Shown: positions 19,195 to 31,234 of the stretch, piece after piece
How the letters are laid out: each line of letters begins with the position of its first letter
Position numbering within the stretch: the stretch's first letter is position 1
From: Chloroflexota bacterium
Lineage (GTDB): Bacteria; Chloroflexota; UBA11872; VXNJ01
Length of the DNA: 64,000 nt
NCBI GenBank assembly: GCA_965203015.1
Contig: CBDBBM010000012.1
Span: 139,445 to 203,444, forward strand
Reading direction: 5' to 3'
Notes under the pieces: model-generated
What the model saw: only the letters and a program-made list of their open reading frames with translations
Databases searched by the model: none
What the model was told of the DNA's origin: nothing
Made by a program: the position numbers and the translations under genes

Positions 19195-19505
19195 ATTGGC
19201 GTCCTGATCTCTCGTTCGCGCAATTCCGGCCGATCCGGGCGCGCATGTGGCACCCAATTCTTGCCGACTCCGAGCAGATTTGATCGGTCGGGCACCCTGT
19301 TTCTGCTCCGGGCCTTCAGTGCGGACGTAGCAAATTCGGCGCTTATCGGGAATCAAAAAGGGAATTTGGAGGTGTTGTCAACAATGTACGTGTGGTGCAT
19401 TCCCGTCTGATCTACACCGGTTGAAGCACCTCGACCCCCAACCTCTCTCTTCTTTTGCACCTTCATTCCGGCCATTCGGCCTAACTCCACAGGCCTGCAG
19501 CCCGC

Positions 19506-22320
19506 GTGAGGCCCGGCATCACTCGCGCCCTCCGCGGCATCCGCCACGGCGCGATACTGCTCCCCCTGTTGGGCGCCGCGCTGTTCTGGGTATTGCTCCT
19601 CCACGGTTCCGCGCCCACGGCCGAGGCGCAGGCGCCTCCCGCAGCCGGCGCCCGCCCAGATAGTCAAACTGCACTTGGGCGCCTACCTGTTCTGGCACGA
19701 GTCTTCCGGGGCGGATGGCTACGAGATTCAGACCCGCTCCCAGTCGGGCGGCACGTGGGGAAGCTGGTCCAGCAACAGCTACACCGGCACCACTCAACCG
19801 GCAACCGTGACCGGCCTGTCCGCAGGGACCAAGTACCAGTGGAGGGTACGGGCCACCAGCGGCAGTGAGCAGAGCGAATGGTCCACGCACAGCGACGACG
19901 ATGCCCCTGCCTACAACTGGACGGCCGAGTCCTTCGGGCGGAACATTGCCAACCCGGCGGTGCTGCAGTCGGCTGAAGCCGGCGACCCGGGGGAGGTCAC
20001 GGTGACGTGGACCCACGGCCCTGCGCGCTCCGGCGCCACCATCACCGGCTGGAGGGTGGGGCTACCGGCTGTTCTCCGAGCCGGTCAATCAGGCCCGGGA
20101 GACAAGCCCGCTGCCCGCCTCCGCGACCACGGCAACCGTCACGGGCCTCACCGGAGGCGAGCAGTACGAGTTCTGGGTGCGGCCATACGTTGGAGGCGTT
20201 CCGGGACGAACGTCCAATGCCCTGGAAGCAACTCCGACGACGACGACCACCCTTGTACCTACCCCTACTCCTGTGCCCACGCAGTCGTCGGACGCAACGC
20301 TGCAGGCGCTGTCGGTCTCGGCGGGAAGCATCTCGCCGGCCTTCTCCTCCACCGCCCTACGCCTACACCGTCGGCGTGGCCGCTGGGGTCACGAGCACCA
20401 CGGTGACACCCACGGTCAACCACTCCGCCGCAACCGTCACCGTCAACGGAACGATGGTCGCCAGCGGCAATCCCAGCGCCTCCATCGCCCTGACGGTGGG
20501 CGCCAATGCGATCACCGTGCAGGTCACGGCGGAGAACGGCGGTACCCAGAACTACATCGTCACCATCACGCGGCGATCGGGTAACGCCGACCTGTCGGGG
20601 CTGTTGGCCAGTACCGCCACCAGCCAAACGGCCACCTACTCAGGCCAGACCCTGACCCCGGCTTGCGCCGCCGGCACCACGGCCTACGGGGCCACGGTCG
20701 GCAACGCCAGGACCCACGCCAGGGTGACGCCCACGGTGGCGGACCCCAACGCCACGGTGCGGGTGGGCAAGCGGGGCGGCACCCCGGCCACGGTGACCAG
20801 CGGCACCGCCAGCGCCCCCAACCGCCCTGAACGTGGGCGCCAACGAGATCGTAGTGCGGGTCACGGCGCAGGACACGTCGATCACCCGGGACTACACCGT
20901 CACCATCACTCGGCAACCGCGCAGCGCCGTGGACGGCACCCCTCCCGCCCCCTCCGGTCTGACGATCACGCCCTGCCCCGCACTGCCTGAGCGCGACCTG
21001 GACCGCGCCGGCGGTTTCGGTGGACGGTTACGACGTGCACTACACCACCAAGTCGGCCTCCGACCTGGCCGACGACGCCGAGATCGGTTACTACCAGCAC
21101 CCGCGCGTGGGCCGGATCATCAACCGGCACCCGGGCCGGGGCTGGGTGGCGCTCCCCACCACCCACAAGGAGCCCAAGTACGGCATGGGCTACCTGCAGC
21201 CCGGCCAGGAATACCGGGTGCGGGTGCGGGCGTACAACAGCGACGGCGCCGGCCCGTGGGCGGTGGGCAAGGGCACGCCGTTGCAGGCGCGACGCACCGT
21301 GACCCTGTCGGCCTCGGCCGAGCGGGTCCGCGAGGGCGACCCGGTGACCATCACCGCCACGGTGCGCTACAACGGCCGGCCCACGCCCATCCAGGAGGGC
21401 ATGGACGTCCCTGCTCAAAACCCACCTGGGCACGGCCGAGGCCGGCGACCTGGGCGCCCTGCAGCAGATCAGCATCGGCAAGTACACCGCCAGCGCCTCG
21501 GCCACCATCCAGACCAACCGAGACAGCGACAGCGACGACGAGACCTTCGCGGTCCTGATCCGCCAGATCCCCAAACGCAACCTGGCGCGGGCGGGCGACC
21601 CGGACATCGTCTGGGTGACCATCACCGAGGGCGACCCGGCCCCGCCCGAGCCGGTGACCGCCCGTGAATCAGGGCAGGCCCCCACGGTGATCGGCGCGGC
21701 TGCCCCACCGGAGCAGGAGGCGCCGGCCGCACCCCCCACCGCCGTGACCCTGTCCCTGGACGCGCTCACCGTCAGCGAGGGCGCCGGCCCCCGCCGGCGG
21801 CATCGGCGGGTTCCTGCTGGCGGGCCCCGACGGCACGGCCTCCCCGGGCGTCGACTACTCCATGCCGCTGGAGATCTTCATCCCGGGCGGACAGCGGTCC
21901 GGTACGGCCACCATCTCGATCACCGACGACGCGGTGGCCGAAGCCTCCGAAACGATCGTGATCTCGGCGCTGTTCGAACTGGGCACTACCGTCCTGGAGG
22001 ACACGATAACGCTCACCATCGGCGGCGACGACACCACCACCGCAAACCAGCCTGCCTCGGACGAGGAACCGGCCACCAATACGGTCGCCGCCACGGGTCC
22101 CGACGACAATCCGGTCACCGATACCCCCACCGACACCCTCGAGGTGAGCGACCCAGTCCCGGAGACAACGCTCCCCGGCATCGCGGCCCGCTACGACGCC
22201 GAAGGCGACGGGGCGATCGAAGGGTCCGACTACCAGCAGGTCAAGCACGACTGGATCTCGGGCAAGATCAGCTACGAGGAGTTCCTGGAGGTAGTCAGGG
22301 TCCACATCAGATCCGCCTGA
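19506..22320 (+). pseudogene. Large secreted adhesin-like protein (FN3 x3, cadherin-like beta-sandwich x2, Calx-beta-like, EF-hand/dockerin-like tail), fragmented by many frameshifts
   Basis: VTGLSAGTKYQWRVRA, VTGLTGGEQYEFWVR, LQPGQEYRVRVRAYN; DATLQALSVS..VGANAITVQVTAENG; YDAEGDGAIEGSDY. Confidence 0.75.
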
Positions 22321-22501
22321 TCCGCCCGCTCATCGACTCCCCGGCTCCTCTCCCGCCGGCCGCGGAGCAGCGGCTCTCCACCCTCACTCGAGTTGCGCGA
22401 GGCGTGCCCGGCCCCGATTCGTGAGGGTCAACCCACGCTGTTGCCTTGGGCGGCGCTCCCTGGCCCCCCAGTTGCACAACCGGGCTGCATGAAATAATCG
22501 A

Positions 22502-22510
22502 CCCCCCCCC
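22502..22510. repeat. C9 homopolymer upstream of the methyltransferase gene
   Basis: Direct count. Confidence 0.8.
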
Positions 22511-22649
22511 GTGCAGGTGAACGCGCGTGGCGGATCTATCTCTGTTTCGAACAGGGCGCGTAGGTATCTCTCCGAGGCTTTACGATCCCATTGCTGATGG
22601 TCGAATTGAGCGGCGAACAGTTCAAATGCACGACTGAGACCAAGCTCCG

Positions 22650-25600
22650 GTGACCTGGTCGGCGCCGCCCCTTCTGCCCGCACGCGATGCACCTATTGAA
22701 TGGCCGAACCCGCTGTCGGTTCCCGGGTTGGACAGCTTTTGCCGGGTTCACCTCGGCAGAGGGAAACGAAAACTTGAGGTATTAGACGTTGCGTGTACCC
22801 ACGCGCCACTTGCGGCAGACGTCCGCTCTCTCTGGTCCATCCGCTGGAACAGGCGAGCCGAGCCGGTCCTGGTTGTCGTAACTTATCCGGCCGGGGATGG
22901 CGGCAGCAATGCGACAGTCTGCGGCCCGATCGGGCCGAGCCCGTCCGTCATCAGCGGGATGGACCGCTCACTGGCTGCCCGGATCGCCGAATCCGCGCTC
23001 CAGGAACCGACGCACCATGCCGCTATTCGCAATCTCACCCTGACGCTCGAGCGAGTCCGGCAGGGTGTACCGGGGATGCGCAACGAAGGCCTCTTTGCGA
23101 CCAATGAACTCGAAAACGGCATTCCGGGTTCGGCCTCCTGGGCACAGGCCTGCGCCCGGGCCGAGGATTGGCTGGATCTGCGCGGCCGAACGCTGGTCGA
23201 ATCGCTCGGATTCCGGGTCGAGCCGTTCGAACTAGGAACCACAGTCCTTCGAGCCGCCCAATCCGGCCAAGTCGCGGGCGAGCCGCCGGCGGCGGCGAAT
23301 ACCGCGGTTGCCATCTTCTGCAACGAAGACGAGACCTTCGAATCCCGGTCGGCACGCTTTGATACCTCGCCCGTCTCGCACGCGATCGCGGTTGCTCACC
23401 GAAGCCGCATCCGATGGGTGATCCTCACCCGGGCCGGCGAAATCCGCCTCTACGCCGCCGAACCGGGGACCGGGGTCGGCGGGCGCGGACCGACTGAAAC
23501 CTACATCGAGCTGAACCTGGCGCTGTTGCCCTCCCGGATGGCCGGGTACCTCGAACTGCTGTTTTCGGCCTGCGCCCTTGCCGACGGCGGTTCCGTCGAT
23601 TCGTCGCTGGAACTCTCGGAACGCTTTTCCAGCGAACTCGCCGGCAGGCTGCGGGAGCGCATCTATTCGGAGGCGGTACCAGCGTTGGCCGCGGCTTTGG
23701 CCCGGCGCGCCGGGCCGGAACCCGGGCGCGAGGAACTTGACGAATTGTTCGCCCAGGTGATGTTGATCATCTTCCGGATCCTGTTTGTCGACTACGCCGA
23801 AGACCGTGACCTGCTGCCGTACAGGACCAATTCCGAGTACGAATCCCATTCGCTGACCGGCATCGCCCGCCGATTGGTGGAGGACGCGCGCAATGCAAAG
23901 AACGACTACGGGAGCTCGCACGACCTGTGGATTGACGTAACCCAGATCTGGCGAGCGGTGGCCGAGGGAAATTCGGACTGGGGCGTGCCCGCCTATGACG
24001 GCGGGTTGTTTTCGGCCGACCCGGAGCGGAGCCCGTTTGGGGCGGCGCTCGAAGAAATATCGTTGAGCAATTCAGAATTCGCGCCGGCCCTGCGTTCGAT
24101 TCTTGTCGACAGGGGCCCGGAGGGCTTCGGCCTGGTCGACTTCCGATCGCTTTCGGCGCGGGAGTTCGGAACCATCTACGAGGGGCTGCTCGAGTCGAAT
24201 CTTTCGGTCGCTCCGCAAGACCTATGCCTGCAAACCAGAGGCAAGAACGCGGGCATGTATCGCCCCGCGCGCGGCGAGGGCGACGAAGTCGTAGTTGCCA
24301 AGGGCCAGGTCTACCTGCAGAACCGGCTCGGCATCCGCAAGTCAACCGGAACGTACTTCACCAAACCGTTCGCGGTCAAACACATCCTCGATCACTCGCT
24401 AGATCGGGCTCTGGACGAGCACGTCGAGCGGCTGGAATCGCTGCGCCGCGCCGGCGACGAAGCCGGGCTGGCCGCGTCGTTCTTTGATTTCCGCTGCGCC
24501 GATATCGCTATGGGATCGGGGCATTTCCTGGTCGCAGCAATCGACCGGATCGAAGCGCGTTTCTCGGCTTACCTGGCCGAGCATCCGGTTGCCGCGATCG
24601 CAAATGAACTGGGCCGCATCGACTCGGCGGCGCGATCCGCGCTCGGGCCATCTTCGGCGAGCGTCGAAATCGAGACCGCGGCGTTGCTCCGCCGCCAGAT
24701 CGCGCGTCACTGCGTATACGGCGTCGACGTGAACCCCATTGCGGTTGAACTCGCCCGGGTCGCCGTCTGGGTTCATACGTTCGTCCCTGGTCTTCCGCTC
24801 TCGTTCCTAGACCACAATTTCGTCTGCGGAAACAGCCTGACCGGCATCAGCGCGCTCGCTGAAGTTGAAACCGCCATGGCCGGGACTGATTCAAGCCAAG
24901 CCGGGGAGTCGATATTCGCTGCCAACGCGCGCCGGCATATCAAGGCCGGCGAAGAACACCTTCGTCGGTTGGCGTTGACCTCCGACGCGACCCGCGCCGA
25001 AGTGGAGGAGGCCCTCTCCGCCCACCGGAACGCGGTTGCGGCGGTGAAGCCGGCCCGCGATCTATTCGACCTGATCACCGCTCACCGCGCCGGCGCCTGC
25101 CAGTTGCCCCCGATGCCGGACGAATCCGAGATTGCCGAGATCTGGAAGCGCCCAGGGACGCAGGAAGTACTTGGGCAGTTCCGGCCGATCCACTTTCCGG
25201 CGGTTTTTCCGGAGGTATTTCTGCGCCCTGAAAGATCCGGATTCGACTGCCTGATCGGAAATCCGCCCTGGGACAAACTGGTGATAAATCGGGAAATCTG
25301 GTGGGGACGCCATCTGCCCGGAGTTAGATCCCTTCCGACCGGAGAGAAGCGGGCCCAGATTGCGGAATTGACTTCGAGCCGCCCCGATCTCGGGGCCGCT
25401 TATGCCTCGGACCGCGAGGGCACCGAGGTATACAAAAAAATAGTTCGAGCTGCATTCAATCTCGGCGCGGGGGACACCGACCTCTACAAGGCGTTCGCGT
25501 GGGCGAATGTAGGACTTGCCCGATCCGGCGGCCAAATCGGCCTGATCCTGCCGCGCTCGGCAATATCCGACGCCGGTATGGCGGGGTGGCGCAACGCGCT

Positions 25601-25862
25601 GCTAGAAACGCAAAATACCCCCCCCCCCGCAAGGGACTTCACCACTCGCGGTGGCGACCCTCATCAATCACCGGGGATGGGTGTTTCCGGGGGTGCACAA
25701 CTCCTACACGGTCGCCCTGCTTGGGATCACCCGACCCTGTCGGTCGCAACGTGCCTCAACACAGCGCAATGGGTTTTCGACGGGGTCGATGGCCGGTACA
25801 CGGTCGCGTTCGTCAACGCCTGCAGGCCCAATCCACGATCCGAACCAAGGGGGTGGGTTTGA
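22650..25862 (+). CDS. Type IIG/Eco57I-like N6-adenine DNA methyltransferase, main subunit with switchable C-terminus
   Basis: WVILT..EIRLY, FGTIYEGLL, RKSTGTYFT, motif I DIAMGSGHFL, YGVDVNP, motif IV NPPW, DLYKAF. Confidence 0.9.
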   Translation: MTWSAPPLLPARDAPIEWPNPLSVPGLDSFCRVHLGRGKRKLEVLDVACTHAPLAADVRSLWSIRWNRRAEPVLVVVTYPAGDGGSNATVCGPIGPSPSVISGMDRSLAARIAESALQEPTHHAAIRNLTLTLERVRQGVPGMRNEGLFATNELENGIPGSASWAQACARAEDWLDLRGRTLVESLGFRVEPFELGTTVLRAAQSGQVAGEPPAAANTAVAIFCNEDETFESRSARFDTSPVSHAIAVAHRSRIRWVILTRAGEIRLYAAEPGTGVGGRGPTETYIELNLALLPSRMAGYLELLFSACALADGGSVDSSLELSERFSSELAGRLRERIYSEAVPALAAALARRAGPEPGREELDELFAQVMLIIFRILFVDYAEDRDLLPYRTNSEYESHSLTGIARRLVEDARNAKNDYGSSHDLWIDVTQIWRAVAEGNSDWGVPAYDGGLFSADPERSPFGAALEEISLSNSEFAPALRSILVDRGPEGFGLVDFRSLSAREFGTIYEGLLESNLSVAPQDLCLQTRGKNAGMYRPARGEGDEVVVAKGQVYLQNRLGIRKSTGTYFTKPFAVKHILDHSLDRALDEHVERLESLRRAGDEAGLAASFFDFRCADIAMGSGHFLVAAIDRIEARFSAYLAEHPVAAIANELGRIDSAARSALGPSSASVEIETAALLRRQIARHCVYGVDVNPIAVELARVAVWVHTFVPGLPLSFLDHNFVCGNSLTGISALAEVETAMAGTDSSQAGESIFAANARRHIKAGEEHLRRLALTSDATRAEVEEALSAHRNAVAAVKPARDLFDLITAHRAGACQLPPMPDESEIAEIWKRPGTQEVLGQFRPIHFPAVFPEVFLRPERSGFDCLIGNPPWDKLVINREIWWGRHLPGVRSLPTGEKRAQIAELTSSRPDLGAAYASDREGTEVYKKIVRAAFNLGAGDTDLYKAFAWANVGLARSGGQIGLILPRSAISDAGMAGWRNALLETQNTPPPARDFTTRGGDPHQSPGMGVSGGAQLLHGRPAWDHPTLSVATCLNTAQWVFDGVDGRYTVAFVNACRPNPRSEPRGWV
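25618..25628. repeat. C11 homopolymer upstream of cassette pair A/B
   Basis: Direct count; 22 nt upstream of cassette A. Confidence 0.85.
25651..25826 (+). repeat. Tandem alternative TRD cassettes A (25651-25734) and B (25743-25826) in different frames
   Basis: VATLINHRGWVFPGVHNSYTVALLGITR vs VATCLNTAQWVFDGVDGRYTVAFVNACR, 14/28 identical, offset 92 nt. Confidence 0.88.
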
Positions 25863-26271
25863 CAGCCAGGAGCCGTGGGTTGAAATCTATCCGGGTCCGG
25901 CAAGCACCCCGGAAAGTTTCCGCGAACTGATCAACGCGGGACCCGTGAGGGTCCCGGTTGCCGAATTCCGGGGCTGGTCCGAAACGGCGGCATTTCCGCA
26001 GATACCAACCAAACCAGCATTTCGGGTCTGGCGCAAGATCAAGCGCCACCCAAGGTTTGACGGCGCTGATCTTGAACGCACTACGGGGGGGGGGGTCCGG
26101 CGGACCTGGCGCTTCCGCCCGGTGGCCGAACTCCACGCGACCCAGGATCGGGGCCATTTTGTAGGCGACGATGGCGCTTCCGCCCGGTCCGCGAACTCGA
26201 TTCCACGCGAGACCGCCCCCGGTTCGTCGGGGACGACGGCAAAAGCGCCCAGGAGCAAGCGCAGTGACTGA
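25859..26271 (+). CDS. Middle segment of the split methyltransferase/TRD; start and linkage uncertain
   Basis: EIYPGPAS..WSETAAFPQIP..VWRKIKRHPRFDG followed by G11 and cassettes C1/C2. Confidence 0.65.
26085..26095. repeat. G11 homopolymer upstream of cassette pair C1/C2
   Basis: Direct count; 11 nt upstream of cassette C1. Confidence 0.85.
26107..26240 (+). repeat. Tandem alternative cassettes C1 (from 26107) and C2 (from 26172) in different frames
   Basis: WRFRPVAELHATQDRGHFVGDDG vs WRFRPVRELDSTRDRPRFVGDDG; first 17 nt identical; offset 65 nt. Confidence 0.9.
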
Positions 26272-27021
26272 TGTCTGGCCGGTGTACAAGGGCGATTCAT
26301 TCAACATCTGGGAACCAGACACCGGGAGCTTCTACGACAGCGCCGACGCCGGCAGCATCACCGCGCACCTTTACCAAAAACGCCTGCGCCAGAGCCGGAC
26401 CGGGTCCTCGGCGTTTCACGAAGTGGACCGTGCCGTGATCGAGGATCCGGCCACCCTGCCCTGCCTGTCCCCGCGGATCACGTTCCGCGACGTGACCAAC
26501 CCCACCAACACCAGAACCATGGTGGCGGCGCTGATTCCGGGGGAGCGGCTGCTGGTCCACATCGCCCCCTACCTGCTCCAGCTTGCCGGGGATGATTCCG
26601 ATACCGCTTTTGTGATCGGGGTTCTTTCGTCGATGCCACTTGATTGGCAGGCAAGGCGCACGGTTGAACTCCACATGACATTCGCCCAGCTGAACCAGCT
26701 CTCATTCCCTGACCCAGGACCGGGCGATCCGGTCCGGGAACGGATTGCCCAGATTTCGGCCTGGCTGGCCTCTGCCGACCCGCGTCTGGCCAACTGGGCC
26801 CGCAACGCCTGGGCCAAATTGCCGAAATACCCCCCCCCTCTCAGCGCCTGCGACCAGAGCTGCTGGCCGAACTCGACGCCTGCGTGGCATTCCTCTACGG
26901 TTTCGACGAATGCGACTTGAGGGTCGTATTCGACACGTTTGGTCGACCCGGGCAATGGGACGCTCGCCGTGACCGAAGCATCCCGTGGCTCCGGCGAATT
27001 GCCGCAAGGGCGGCGATTTGA
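26264..27021 (+). CDS. TRD/specificity subunit D1 (C9 tract at 26830-38; full length with C10)
   Basis: AGGAG then GTG 26264; WPVYKGDSFNIW..PRITFRDVTNPTNTRTM; LLAELDACVAFLYG in the shifted frame, stop 27019-21. Confidence 0.8.
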
Positions 27022-27781
27022 TGATCGCGGTGGACAAATCTGGCCAGTTTGTTCCGGCAAAAGTTTCAACGTCTGGAAGCCAGATACCGGGAATTACTAC
27101 GACAGCGCCGACGCCGAGTGCATCACCGAGCACCTCTACCGGAAGCGCCTCCGCCAGAGCCGGACCGCGTCCTCCGCCTTTCACGAACTGGATCCTGCGG
27201 TGATCGAGGACCCGGCCACGCTGCCGTGTCGGCATCCGCGAATAGTTTTCCGGGATGTGACCAATTCCACCAACACTAGGACCATGGTGACGGCGCTGAT
27301 TCCCGGGGAGCGGGTCACTACCGAAAGCGCTCCTTACCTGCTGCAATTGGCCGGTGAAAAGAGAGATGTGGCGTACGTTCTTGGCGTGCTTGCTTCGATG
27401 GTTTTTGACTGGCAATCCCGCCGTACCGTGGAGTTGCATGTCAAATTTGCGCAGTTGAATGCGTTTTCGATCCCGGACCCGGGACCGGGCGACCCCATTC
27501 GCGACCGGGTTACGGAAATAGCTGGCCGGATCGCCGCCGCCGACGAGCGTTTCGCGGAATGGGCCGAGGAAGTCGGTGTCCCGGTCGGATCGATTCGCGA
27601 TTCGGGCGAATTTGAGAACCTCCTGGCCGAGCTCGACGCGTGCGTGGCCCACCTCTACGGCCTTGACGCCGCAGACCTTCGGACGATTTACGAGACGTTC
27701 AGCGGATCGGTCGACTATTCGGGCAGAAGCCGATCCGCGGCAATGCACCTGCTGCGAATACAGGGAGCGAATCGGGCTTGA
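27021..27781 (+). CDS. TRD/specificity subunit D2, paralog of D1 (start needs +1 nt near 27037, or an upstream alternative start)
   Basis: WPVCSGKSFNVW..PRIVFRDVTNSTNTRTM..LLAELDACVAHLYGL. Confidence 0.82.
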
Positions 27782-30700
27782 ACGACTCCGAGGTCCGCGG
27801 TGGATTCGACTACGGTGACCGCAACAAACCCGAGCTTGCGACCAACCGCCCCGGTGAGCGGACCGCCGACGCGCTTGAGCGGTTTCTGAGCTTTGCGGCT
27901 TCGCTCCCTGGGAACCCGCGCGCCGATATTGCCACCGGCTACTTCAACCTGGGTGGCTACACGCTGCTGGCCGACACTCTGGACAAATTCGAGAATGTCC
28001 GCTTACTGCTGGGCGCCGAGCCGGAACCCAGCCGAGGCGAACGTCGTATCCGCGAAATCGGCAAGGAACCAGCCGATAGCTCTCGTTCAGAGGAACTGTT
28101 GCTTGAACGGGCCTTGGAGGGATTGGACAGAAGCCTCGCCGGGGGCCGAAACCTACTCGGGTACAGCCGCGAAATCGATGGCCATTCAAAACGCCTTATC
28201 AAATGGCTTTCTTCCGGGCGCGTCATGGTCCGGCGATACGAGCACGGGTTCCTGCACGGAAAGGCCTTTATCGCCGCCGACAACAGCCATGGCCTTGTGG
28301 CGGGATCATCCAATTTCACGCGCGCCGGATTGACCACGAATCTCGAACTGAATCTTGGCAACTATCAGCCACACGTGGTTGGAAGAGTACAGGCGTGGTT
28401 TGACCAGCTCTGGGCAGAGTCGCGCGATTACGACTTGGCGAAGTTGTTCGAAGAGCGATTCGAACCCCACCCGCCGAATCTGATTTTTCTGCGCATGCTT
28501 TGGGAGCTTTACGGAAGTGAGCTCGGCGCTGACGCGCGACCGGAAGCGGGGGGCCTCCACCTGACCCAGTTCCAAAATGACGGCCTGGCGCGGGCCGGTT
28601 CGATTCTTGCCAGGCGCGGCGGAGTCCTGATCGCCGATGAAGTCGGTCTGGGCAAGACATTCCTGGCCGGCAAGCTCATTGAGGCCGCCGCCCTCGACCG
28701 CCGCCAGCGGGTGCTGGTCGTTGCGCCCGCCGCCCTCCGCGACGGTACGTGGGACGCGTTCCGGAATGAGTTCAAACTTCCCTTCCAGATCGTCTCATTT
28801 GAGGAACTGACCAGGGATCGACGCCTGAATCCGTCGGCGCCGCCGGGGTCCGACCCTCTTGCCGGTGCAGACCCGGACGAATTCGCGTTGGTTGTCGTCG
28901 ACGAGGCCCACCGTCTGCGCAATCCGTCCACTCAGCGTGCCCAGGCAGTCCGAAGACTGCTCGCCGGGAAAAGCCCCAAGAAACTGGTGCTGCTGACCGC
29001 GACGCCGGTCAACAACAGCCTCTGGGACCTGTTTCACATTCTGGGCTTCTTCCTCCAGCACGGACGCCTCGCTGGCCGACGCCGGGATTCTGTCGCTGAA
29101 GGAGAGGTTCGCGACCGCGATGCGGCTCGGCCCAGAAGATTTGACGCCGGAACTTCTTTTCGACGTGCTGGACGCTGTGGCGGTGAGGCGCACCCGCAAA
29201 TTCATAAAGCGCTACTACGCCAACGCCACGATCAGGCTCGGCCGGGCTGGCACGGGCGGTGAGGTCAGGGTCGTTTTCCCCACGCCGAGAGTGCGTCGGC
29301 TGGACTACGAGCTGGACGCGGCCCTGCGTCCCGGTTTCTTCGAACGCTTCGAGGAGGCCCTTTCGCCTGACTCCGATTTAGACCGCGATCCGCGGCCCCA
29401 AGATCGCGACCAACCGCGCCGCCGGTCGCTCACCTTTGCGCGCTATTTGAGTTCGCGCTACCTGCGTCCGGAGCACGTCGATCCTGACGATCGGGAAGGC
29501 CAGTACCAGATCCTCAACGCCGGGATCCTCAAATCCGGGCTGCTCAAGCGCTTCGAATCCTCACCGGCCGCATTCGTGAAGACCTGCCGCCGCATGGTGC
29601 GGGGGTTCGACGCTTTCCTCGATCTGCTGGCGCGCGGCCAGGTGGCGTCGGCGGCGGCCCTTGCCGAATGGTCGGCGACCGACTTTGACGAGGAAGGATT
29701 CGAGGAATTCCTGTCCGAATTTGGTTCGGAAATGGCCCCGGCCGCGCATTACCACGCCGCGCGGCTCTCAAACGACATCGAATCGGACCGCAATCTGCTG
29801 AACTCGCTCGCAGACGAGATCGGACAAATCGGTCCGGACCAGGATCCGAATCTCGCCGTCCTGCTCGACCAATTGGCCGCGATCGCGGCAGCGGCCGCGC
29901 GTGAAGGCATCGGCGGCCAGGACCGGCGCGACCGGCGCAAAGTGATCGTATTCAGTTATTTCGCCGATACCGTCGCGTGGATCGCCGATCACCTGCGGGC
30001 GGCGGTTCGGACCGATCCCCGGTTGGCTGATTACCGTGGTCGGATCGTGGAGGTGACCGGCGGCAGCGGCAATTCGGCGGCGGCAATGCGCGGCTTCGCG
30101 CCGCGCACCAGCGCCCGGTCGGAGCGCGAGGATGACGACCTCTACGACCTGCTCATTTCGACCGACGTGTTGGCAGAAGGGGTGAACCTCCAGCAGGCCC
30201 GCCACATCATCAATTACGACCTGCCGTGGAACCCGATGCGGCTGGTGCAACGACACGGCCGAATAGACCGGCTGGGGTCTTCGCACTCAGAGGTATTTAT
30301 CCATTGCGTTTTCCCCGATAAGCGACTGGATGAGCTACTTGGGCTGGAGGAGCGAATCCGGGCCAAGCTGCACCAGGCCGCAAATTCCCTGGGCGCGCCG
30401 GCTGTGCTGCCGGACCAGGCCGGCGGCCGGGGATTCGTCTCCGATACGCGGGGGGAGATCGAACGCCTGCGGCGCGCCGATCCGGCGCTGTTCGAACGTG
30501 GCGGTACCGGGCGCAGCGCGCTGTCCGGAGAGGAATTCCGGCGCGACCTCTGGGAGGCGATGCGGGACCAATCCCTGGCCGATCAAATAAGGGAACTGCC
30601 CTGGGGGTCGGGCTCGGGAATGATTGCCGGCACCGGTGGGGCGGTCGCGGATTCGACCGCGTTCGTCTTCTGCGCGCGGATCGGTGATCTCGATCGTCCC

Positions 30701-31234
30701 GAATTTCGGCTCGTAGAGCTGCCCACGAGCGCGAGCGTCGGGGAACCCGACGCCGCCAGCACATCCAGCGATCTTTTGGTCTGCCTGGACCGTGCGCAAC
30801 CGCCGGCCGGCAGCTTGCAGCCGCGGACGCTCCCGGCCCACGTTTACGACCGCGCGTTTGACGCCTGGCAGATTGCCCGTGATGACATCATCCGCTCCCG
30901 CCGAGCCGCGGCGGACCCGGCGACTTACCAGCAACCGCTGGCAAAGGCGTTGCGCGAGTCGGCCCGGTTGATTCGAGATCATCCGCCGCCGGACTTGGCC
31001 CGGGAAGAAGTCGAGAGGCTAGTAGATTCGATCGAGGCGCCACACCCGCACCGGACGGTCACGGAATTCCGAACGGCGCTCCGGGGTTCGGAGGTGCCGG
31101 CCGAACAGGCCGCGGCGGCGGTTGCGGTAGTCCGCGACCTCGGCCTGCAACCCTACGAGCCGCCGGAGCCCCTGCCGCCGATCGAAGAGTCGGACATAAA
31201 CCTGATCTGCTGGCTGGCAATTTTGCCTGAGTGA
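27778..31234 (+). CDS. PLD nuclease-SNF2 helicase fusion (apparent frameshift ~29057)
   Basis: LHGKAF..GSSNFT; ADEVGLGKT, DEAH, TATP, TDVLAEGVNLQ, QRHGRIDR. Confidence 0.9.

Follow-up and report, generated by a model that had tools for sequence, protein, structure and literature searches.

Switching of Type I, IIG and III methyltransferases between ON and OFF states by simple sequence repeats (SSRs) is well known, and accounts of phase-variable restriction-modification (R-M) genes usually present them as binary switches of pathogens. In the Type IIG enzymes Hpy99XIV (JHP1272) and HpyAXVI (HP1353-HP1354) of Helicobacter pylori, as set out in the passages on these genes in Krebes et al. (2014, PMC3936762), a first homopolymer acts as an ON/OFF switch while a second one changes specificity. 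The present analysis concerns a run of eleven G residues (G11, also called switch 2) inside a Type IIG-like methyltransferase gene of a sponge-associated Chloroflexota bacterium. It lies in a 64,000-nt stretch of DNA, the whole of which we refer to as the window (contig C12, positions 139445-203444, of a 2.24 Mb genome in 25 contigs with 67% GC). Positions are counted from the first base of the window, all features described are on its plus strand, and reading frames are named by coordinate modulo 3. We consider it likely that the methyltransferase gene is phase-variable, with G11 among its three hypermutable repeats, and that it forms a two-gene system, as the first gene, with a PLD-SNF2 helicase.

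The G11 tract and the cassettes behind it

The gene, of about 1,380 amino acids and with the PLD-SNF2 helicase gene next downstream, consists of parts that we call A, B, middle, C and D. The middle segment (QEPWVEIYPGP...RHPRFDGADLERTT, 25867-26084, frame 1) leads into the eleven G residues (26085-26095), behind which lies a direct repeat of 65 nt (26107-26171 and 26172-26236, 71% identity, spacing 65, which is 2 modulo 3). The repeat corresponds to two tandem units in different frames: C1 (WRFRPVAELHAT.., frame 1) is a cassette of type b, WRFRPVAELHATQDRGHFVGDD, at 26107-26171, and C2 (WRFRPVRELDST.., frame 0) a cassette of type c, WRFRPVRELDSTRDRPRFVGDDGKSAQEQAQ, at 26172-26267. An earlier, sequence-only reading had predicted a different outcome for each tract length, and the three-frame translation bears this out. 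Frame 1, the frame of the middle segment with G11, reads ..TTGGGVRRTWRFRPVAELHATQDRGHFVGDDG.. and within C1 WRFRPVAELHATQDRGHF..; it then crosses C2 out of frame and ends at the TGA at 26269-71. Frame 0, entered with G12 or G9, passes C1 out of frame without meeting a stop, continues into C2 (WRFRPVRELDSTRDRPRF..) and ends at the TGA at 26265-67. The G10 state leads into frame 2, which is closed by the TAG at 26162-26164, at -114 from the W of a WPV motif at the beginning of D; relatives have a stop there too.

The same reading had placed the ends of both productive frames beside a GTG preceded by a Shine–Dalgarno sequence, and this is indeed what is found. The D1 module is opened in frame 2 by GTG 26264-66 (VTDVWPVYKG..), with a Shine–Dalgarno-like AGGAG (26251-26255) 8 nt upstream. 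This start codon overlaps the stop of C2 in a GTGA, and the TGA of the C1 frame follows 5 nt after the start. G11 is a long SSR within a coding region, and a change in its length changes the frame, two of the features by which SSR phase variation is recognized.

We propose that slipped-strand changes in tract length would set the frame in which ribosomes exit the middle segment. Paralogous C units stand in tandem behind the tract and, because the period of the array is 2 modulo 3, each of them would be in sense in a different frame. With G11, G8 or G14 the large subunit would end in the type-b segment (C1), and with G12 or G9 in the type-c segment (C2). With G10 or G13 neither segment would be made, since frame 2 stops at TAG 26162. 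The D module would be a separate open reading frame (ORF) starting at GTG 26264, and its translation could stay coupled in either productive state because this codon overlaps or abuts the stops of both frames. Such stop-start coupling at the D start is what the arrangement of the codons leads us to infer.

The window alone proves little, since at 67% GC an out-of-frame stretch of 25 codons stays open by chance with a probability of about 0.57. The tract itself is unusual: the genome contains 356 G/C runs of 6 nt, seven of 7 nt and 14 of at least 8 nt, the latter comprising two, seven, two, two and one runs of 8, 9, 11, 12 and 18 nt, respectively; the length distribution is bimodal. Four of the 14 long runs lie within 4.4 kb at this locus (22.5-26.9 kb of the window).

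Layout, repeats and constraint in related loci

Relatives were found with part A as the query in 32 metagenome loci and 80 genome loci (112 in total; 43-57% amino-acid identity). They belong mostly to metagenome-assembled genomes (MAGs) of sponge-associated Acidimicrobiia, several of them at chromosome level, and the same query detected a homologue in none of six genomes of the same genus. Seventeen redundant loci (at least 97% identity) were dropped, giving 91 non-redundant loci including the window. When the individual pieces were placed by tblastn, two kinds of loci emerged. 'Simple' loci have a single B, C and D in one frame, and repeats are absent. 'Cassette' loci have two B units, B1 and B2, in different frames (period 92), often two copies of D, and two to four C units in successive frames with a period of 65-74 that is always 2 modulo 3. 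The repeats at their A|B and middle|C junctions are of many kinds: poly-G or poly-C, (CT)n, (GAAC)n, (CCGAA)n, heptamers, octamers and decamers.

The presence of a repeat goes together with the copy number of the segment that follows. Loci with no detected middle segment or D were left unscored in the respective comparison, and the P values are from Fisher tests, which ignore kinship and hence the ancestry that related loci share. At switch 2, all 53 scored loci with at least two C copies, these being in different frames, have an SSR at the junction occupied by G11 in the window, and among loci with one copy seven have an SSR and 12 have none (P = 3e-9). At switch 1, the junction between A and B, an SSR is present in 41 and absent from three loci with at least two B copies, and absent from all 31 loci with one (P = 5e-18). 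At switch 3, within D1, the corresponding numbers are 13 with and one without an SSR for at least two D copies, and one with and 67 without for a single copy (P = 4e-13). The repeat units are 1, 2, 4, 5, 7, 8 or 10 nt long, and in none of the 116 SSRs at the three junctions, nor in any of the 57 among them with units of at least 2 nt, is this length divisible by 3.

The C units fall into three types: a (..PVQGD[LF]N[AS]T.DR..), b (..PVAE[LF]HATHDR..) and c (..PVRE[LF]DAT.DR..). The window carries types b (C1) and c (C2), type a being absent, whereas three types are found in relatives. Single-copy homologues have one type each, and all three are represented among them. In multi-copy loci each type shows an excess of diversity at the third codon position in its own frame, with values for positions 1/2/3, measured outside the motif used to pick the units, of 0.19/0.18/0.37, 0.25/0.21/0.34 and 0.29/0.24/0.40. 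The excess is likewise seen when all codons are counted. At the protein level, then, each cassette type is constrained in its own frame. Reading begun at the head of the array can reach the end of 128 of 129 cassettes in their own frame, and this applies to every cassette in 45 of 46 loci.

One might suppose that the locus undergoes plain ON/OFF phase variation, with a single working C unit and the others as unused leftovers of tandem duplication. Such a switch appears to exist in the second methyltransferase of this genome, where a G12 tract simply breaks the frame, and just one frame reaches D as a fusion in 21 of the 46 loci. Leftovers, however, would hardly account for types a, b and c being conserved across loci with a position-3 excess in mutually different own frames, for 128 of 129 cassettes being both reachable and complete in their own frame, or for the use of each of the three types by single-copy homologues. 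We therefore regard this alternative as unlikely.

The repeat at the switch 2 junction is hypermutable in relatives. Loci L056 and L115, from two MAGs, have no mismatch in 4,388 nt and differ by three indels, one per SSR: at switch 1 they have G9/G11, at switch 2 (CT)11/(CT)14 and at switch 3 G11/G12. In L025, L026 and L027, separated by 7-24 substitutions, indels are confined to the decamer and tetramer repeats, and switch 2 differs by one or two tetramers. In the lineage of the window, switch 1 is shorter by two C's (C9) in the X1 and X3 contigs, and switch 3 is one base shorter in that of X3. Over 22300-29062, the stretch covered by the Logan contig of run X1, this contig differs from the window by three gap letters only, none of them in 26085-26271. 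The X3 contig also spans the G11 region, with 226 substitutions over 9.1 kb, while those of runs X2 and X4 end at tracts, G11 included.

These comparisons also bear on recombination between silent cassettes, in which the extra C units (and likewise those of B and D) would serve as donors through deletion, duplication or gene conversion, with the SSRs resetting the frame afterwards. The number of C copies does vary from one to four among loci (four in L058), and L053 lacks 721 nt between the G tracts of D1 and D2 that are present in L056 and L115. Donor cassettes would likewise be expected to keep their codon-level constraint, and for this reason recombination stays in the picture as a minor rival. 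Near-identical loci nevertheless differ in SSR length and not in the number of units, L053 excepted, and a period of 2 modulo 3 together with an SSR in all 53 multi-copy loci fits frame selection directly. As the main mode of switching, recombination seems to us quite improbable.

The junction between C and D was compared in 46 loci, L100 and L129 having been dropped because more than 150 nt separate their last C from D. In 25 of these loci, which we call split, all three frames stop before D, and in the 21 fused ones a single frame runs into it. The D start codon, ATG in 20 loci and GTG in four, precedes the W of WPV by exactly 12 nt in 24 of the 25 split loci. Two frames stop at this start codon in two split loci, namely the window and the L048/L060 locus; in 19 others one frame does so, and in four no frame. 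The sequence-only reading had drawn attention to the double stop, which must be given up as a conserved signature on account of these two cases in 25; the conserved feature is the D start itself. The remaining frames in split loci stop about 50-58 and 114-123 nt upstream, where the unit motif F[VM]N (TTC GTG/ATG AAC) creates an xTGA. Judging from these overlaps of stops and potential starts, ribosomes could be handed from frame to frame down to D.

The earlier reading had further argued that the window reflects selection rather than decay, and here the comparative evidence is on its side, with the SSR in 53 of 53 multi-copy loci, the unit lengths, the codon-level constraint, the variation in SSR length and the position of the D start. 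Dozens of related genes have the same layout, and a selected switch is therefore likelier than a broken gene. A frameshifted pseudogene, or homopolymer lengths that are mere sequencing errors, might be suggested by the several frame breaks in the window, of which the one in the helicase gene is at a non-repeat site, by the low depth of the source run (3.3), and by the disagreement between the Logan contig of run X1 and the assembly at the C11 tract of switch 1. However, the same architecture recurs in chromosome-level MAGs and in many independent samples, the cassettes are in different frames regardless of tract length, and repeats of two to ten nucleotides, not just homopolymers, occupy the same junctions. 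Decay would not be expected to leave codon-level constraint and a conserved D start codon, and we consider both decay and error very improbable as explanations.

Enzyme family, further switches and the window copy

Part A (22650-25617, frame 0) comprises the N-terminal region and an N6-adenine methyltransferase domain (GNPPW; the translation contains GNPPWDK). In PADLOC it matches the 1378-position model REase_MTase_IIG PDLC03620 from position 58 to 986 (E 1.5e-178), and in Pfam it matches Eco57I (E 2.5e-12). Its N-terminal ~540 amino acids gave no Pfam match; a nuclease function may come from the neighbouring PLD-SNF2 gene. The two D modules match positions 1131-1359 of the same PADLOC model (E 1.5e-34 for D1 and 1.2e-46 for D2). 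An N6-adenine methyltransferase domain with NPPW/Y and a C-terminal recognition region within one polypeptide family are among the features of Type IIG enzymes, and both are present here. Intact homologues are single ORFs of 1327-1392 amino acids with the pieces in the order A, B, middle, C, D.

The homologue of Geodermatophilus saharensis, residues 541-1374, was modelled with AlphaFold (AF2) from 49 sequences, with a predicted local distance difference test (pLDDT) score of 90.6. The folded alignment contained 48 of the 150 listed representatives, that is, 48 of the 50 with at least 1200 amino acids; P0085 and P0124, with two matched stretches each, were left out of it, and L096, L030 and L121 were excluded from the list behind the choice of the folded protein. 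The model superposes on DNA-bound CamA (Z 26.3 over 482 residues, model 38-801 on chain 27-577), DNA-bound BrxX (Z 25.6), M.TaqI (Z 20.9, model 42-741 on chain 21-408) and MmeI (Z 20.8). B, middle, C and D therefore occupy the last part of the methyltransferase domain together with the C-terminal region for DNA recognition. The B segment, with an invariant N..WVF, is aligned to CamA 243-269, and C is predicted as an ordered strand plus loop (residues 566-594). The repeat sites fall on a helix-strand junction (switch 1) and on coils at residues 559-566 (switch 2) and 773-785 (switch 3) of the model. A sequence search of the PDB with the single Geodermatophilus protein gave no match, and in a profile search against the PDB only the methyltransferase core and the B segment were aligned to CamA, C and D being left with no residue-level map. 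The C variants would alter properties of the enzyme, most likely DNA recognition; C sits in the modelled region that superposes on the recognition domains of CamA, M.TaqI and BrxX.

Switch 1 in the window is a C11 tract (25618-25628) between A and B1. The two B cassettes are versions of a strand-loop-strand with N..WVF at the end of the methyltransferase domain: B1 (..LAVATLINHRGWVFPGVHNSYTVALLGITRP, 25636-25737) is in frame 1, and B2 (..ATCLNTAQWVFDGVDGRYTVAFV..PRGWV, 25731-25862) is in frame 0 and ends with the TGA at 25860-62. Diversity in the own frame of B2 is 0.25/0.23/0.41 at the three codon positions (40 sequences, nucleotide-anchored). Of the 44 two-B loci, 13 have A in frame with B1 and nine have it in frame with B2; in the other 22 it is in frame with neither. 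When B1 is the one in frame, B2 is read out of frame as a linker rich in S, T, P and G. In the B2 state the frame stops just past ..PRGW[LPV], at a site (3489-3504 in L021) which in relatives reads GGGGG-TGG-CTT-TGA.

This site resembles the programmed +1 frameshift site of prfB, for which the published consensus is CTT_TGA_C with an upstream Shine–Dalgarno-like stimulator, according to the portion of PMC3711429 that deals with it. The prfB gene of the genome itself (C18:81343, minus strand, L133) conforms to this with GGGGG-CGT-CTT-TGA-C; its first ORF ends in ..RQLRGRL*, with the body of RF2 (DHPGK..) encoded in the +1 frame. The full CTT TGA motif follows B2 in 29 of the 44 two-B loci, seven have CCT TGA and one CAT TGA, while GTT TGA is found in the window. 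Within 1.2 Mb of loci the motif occurs 29 times, always at the end of B2, none of the 31 single-B loci has it, and in 42 of the 44 two-B loci the +1 frame after B2 is that of the middle segment. We infer that the prfB-like site would restore the frame at switch 1. In the window (AGGGGG-TGG-GTT-TGA-C, 25848-25863) the +1 frame also is the middle-segment frame, but the site reads GUU UGA C instead of CUU UGA and is for this reason to be taken as a variant of uncertain activity. The invariance of the 15-nt site after B2 had been considered as proof of an RNA signal. This argument was rejected: a change at any of its positions would be non-synonymous in one or other of the overlapping two frames, and invariance alone is thus no proof of such a signal.

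Switch 3 is a C9 tract (26830-26838) between D1a (26264-26829, frame 2, PDLC03620 positions 1131-1310) and D1b, the C-terminal part of D1 (26842-27017, frame 1), which is out of frame with D1a in the assembly. It lies in a coil of D1 and is present where a second D copy follows, a homopolymer being found here in 13 of the 14 non-redundant two-D loci. In the window the second complete module, D2, occupies 26939-27781 (frame 2); in relatives, too, the D2 ORF begins within D1b. The 721 nt missing from L053 relative to L056 and L115 lie between the D1 G tract and the matching D2 G run. The deletion would fuse D1a to the end of D2, which suggests recombination between the tracts or their flanks. 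A further C9 tract (22502-22510) is located 140 nt upstream of the GTG of the gene. An upstream SSR is sporadic and was rejected as a fourth switch of the family, since it occurs in three of 47 cassette-type loci.

Taken together, the three repeats might form what could be called a reading-frame multiplexer. The repeats would independently index arrays of B1/B2, C a/b/c and D1/D2, the copies that are out of frame would be tolerated as linker, the +1 site would return ribosomes to the frame after B2, and the stop-start overlaps would relay them to D. From a single two-gene defence system, a dozen or so enzyme variants differing in DNA specificity could then coexist per clonal population of sponge symbionts. 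We give this fuller scheme slightly less than even odds.

Several points weigh against a selected frame switch of this kind. The counts in related loci overstate independence, and the commonest state of switch 1 is one in which A is joined to neither B (22 of 44). No length variant of G11 is found among the indels listed, which come from Logan contigs. The window holds just two C units and no type a, and C has no assignable residue-level contact with DNA. Likewise, a double stop at the D start is seen in only two of 25 split loci, and the +1-frame stop in every unit is weak evidence for a designed relay, because it arises as a by-product of F[VM]N. Finally, most junctions in the window are out of phase (A to B2, the GTT site, D1a/D1b), to which the frameshift in the helicase gene must be added. 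In the assembled sequence, C11 joins A to B2, G11 joins the middle segment to C1, D1a and D1b are out of frame with each other, and D2 is intact. With such frame breaks the copy in the window could be decaying even if the design of the family is selected, and it may be mostly 'off' or partly decayed.

The neighbouring gene codes for a PLD(HKD)-SNF2 helicase (27778-31234). In 67 of the 78 related loci with enough sequence a homologue of it lies directly downstream. In the window an additional base at about 29062 breaks the helicase gene into two pieces, 27778-29262 and 29120-31234. At 29062, where the window has GG, the contigs of runs X2, X3 and X4 are one base shorter, and those of X1 end there; the break must be a true frameshift or else come from a join in the assembly.

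Elsewhere in the genome, a second gene of the Eco57I/N6_Mtase type has a G12 near its 3' end (C24:237264-237275; L008 4265-4276), which puts the last ~165 codons out of frame and looks like a plain ON/OFF switch. Other long tracts include an 18-nt C run at C5:77450 and a G12 at C20:536; three more, within ORFs that have no Pfam match, lie at C18:238939-243843. Upstream of the methyltransferase gene, on the plus strand at 19500-22450 of the window, several long ORFs overlap in different frames (for example 19675-20406, 20007-20990, 20833-21558, 21020-21667 and 21615-22424); they may represent a large gene with frameshifts or mere noise of GC-rich DNA.

Comparison with described phase-variable systems

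A literature search that covered few subscription journals and no supplements returned no account of tandem out-of-frame cassette arrays behind SSRs, and within the same coverage no prfB-like site in an R-M gene and no phase variation in sponge symbionts. The terms 'phase varia', 'homopolymer' and 'frameshift' are all absent from PMC11410982. In the literature searched we thus found no precedent for frame-indexed tandem arrays, for SSRs of such variety at fixed junctions, for an arrangement on three levels, for the prfB-like site or for the setting in sponge symbionts.

The locus points to a design principle in uncultured sponge symbionts, in which a repeat sets the frame and an array with a period of 2 modulo 3 offers each frame a functional segment of its own. 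Provided that the choice of segment alters DNA recognition, a single locus could provide many methylation and restriction specificities per population, and recombinases would be unneeded. This would bear on how symbionts outpace phages in phage-rich sponges, as well as on the tolerance of proteins for dual-frame coding and on other uses of the prfB frameshift signal. The cassettes also are natural pairs of recognition-domain variants that might serve for engineering methyltransferase specificity. For annotation there is a warning in that 'frameshifted pseudogenes' of this kind in MAGs may be working genes.

With the H. pylori enzymes, as they appear in the passages of Krebes et al. (2014, PMC3936762) mentioned above, the gene shares its Type IIG nature and the presence of more than one homopolymer, and G11 would likewise choose a C-terminal segment, here within the region that superposes on recognition domains. 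The change in specificity belongs to the H. pylori enzymes; for the present gene the likeness is one of layout, drawn from sequence alone. According to the same passages, the second switch in H. pylori adds or omits one small extra C-terminal domain, whereas here two to four paralogous units, one per frame, would provide a three-state choice. The H. pylori genes as presented there also differ from this family in the many sizes of SSR unit, the third switch with a duplicated D, the separately initiated D and the prfB-like site, all of which are found here.

The Type IIG enzyme Cj0031 of Campylobacter jejuni has a poly-G tract within its gene, as here, with stochastic switching of methylation, but in the relevant passages of PMC4889913 the switch is binary ON/OFF and no alternative cassettes appear, unlike here. 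Several specificities from one locus through a high-frequency genetic switch are described for hsdS of Type I systems, in those parts of PMC9577141 that treat NgoAV and of PMC7394358 that treat duplicated hsdS. As described in these parts, they are obtained with a truncated subunit of two target-recognition domains (NgoAV, by an SSR) or by site-specific or homologous inversion, and frame-indexed tandem cassettes are not among their devices.

The Mycoplasma bovis mod1 gene (bioRxiv 10.64898/2026.04.01.715767) combines an SSR switch with translational frameshifting in an R-M methyltransferase gene, which invites comparison with the arrangement proposed here. This mod gene belongs to a Type III system, however; the ribosomal slip, of -1 at A5T, partly compensates for the SSR frameshift, expression is graded, and alternative cassettes are absent from the account of mod1 in the relevant part of that preprint. 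The site after B2 resembles that of prfB, with which it shares GGGGG, a 3-nt spacer, CTT TGA and continuation in the +1 frame in 29 of the 44 two-B loci. In contrast to prfB, the putative site is located in a defence gene and would act in only one state of the SSR.

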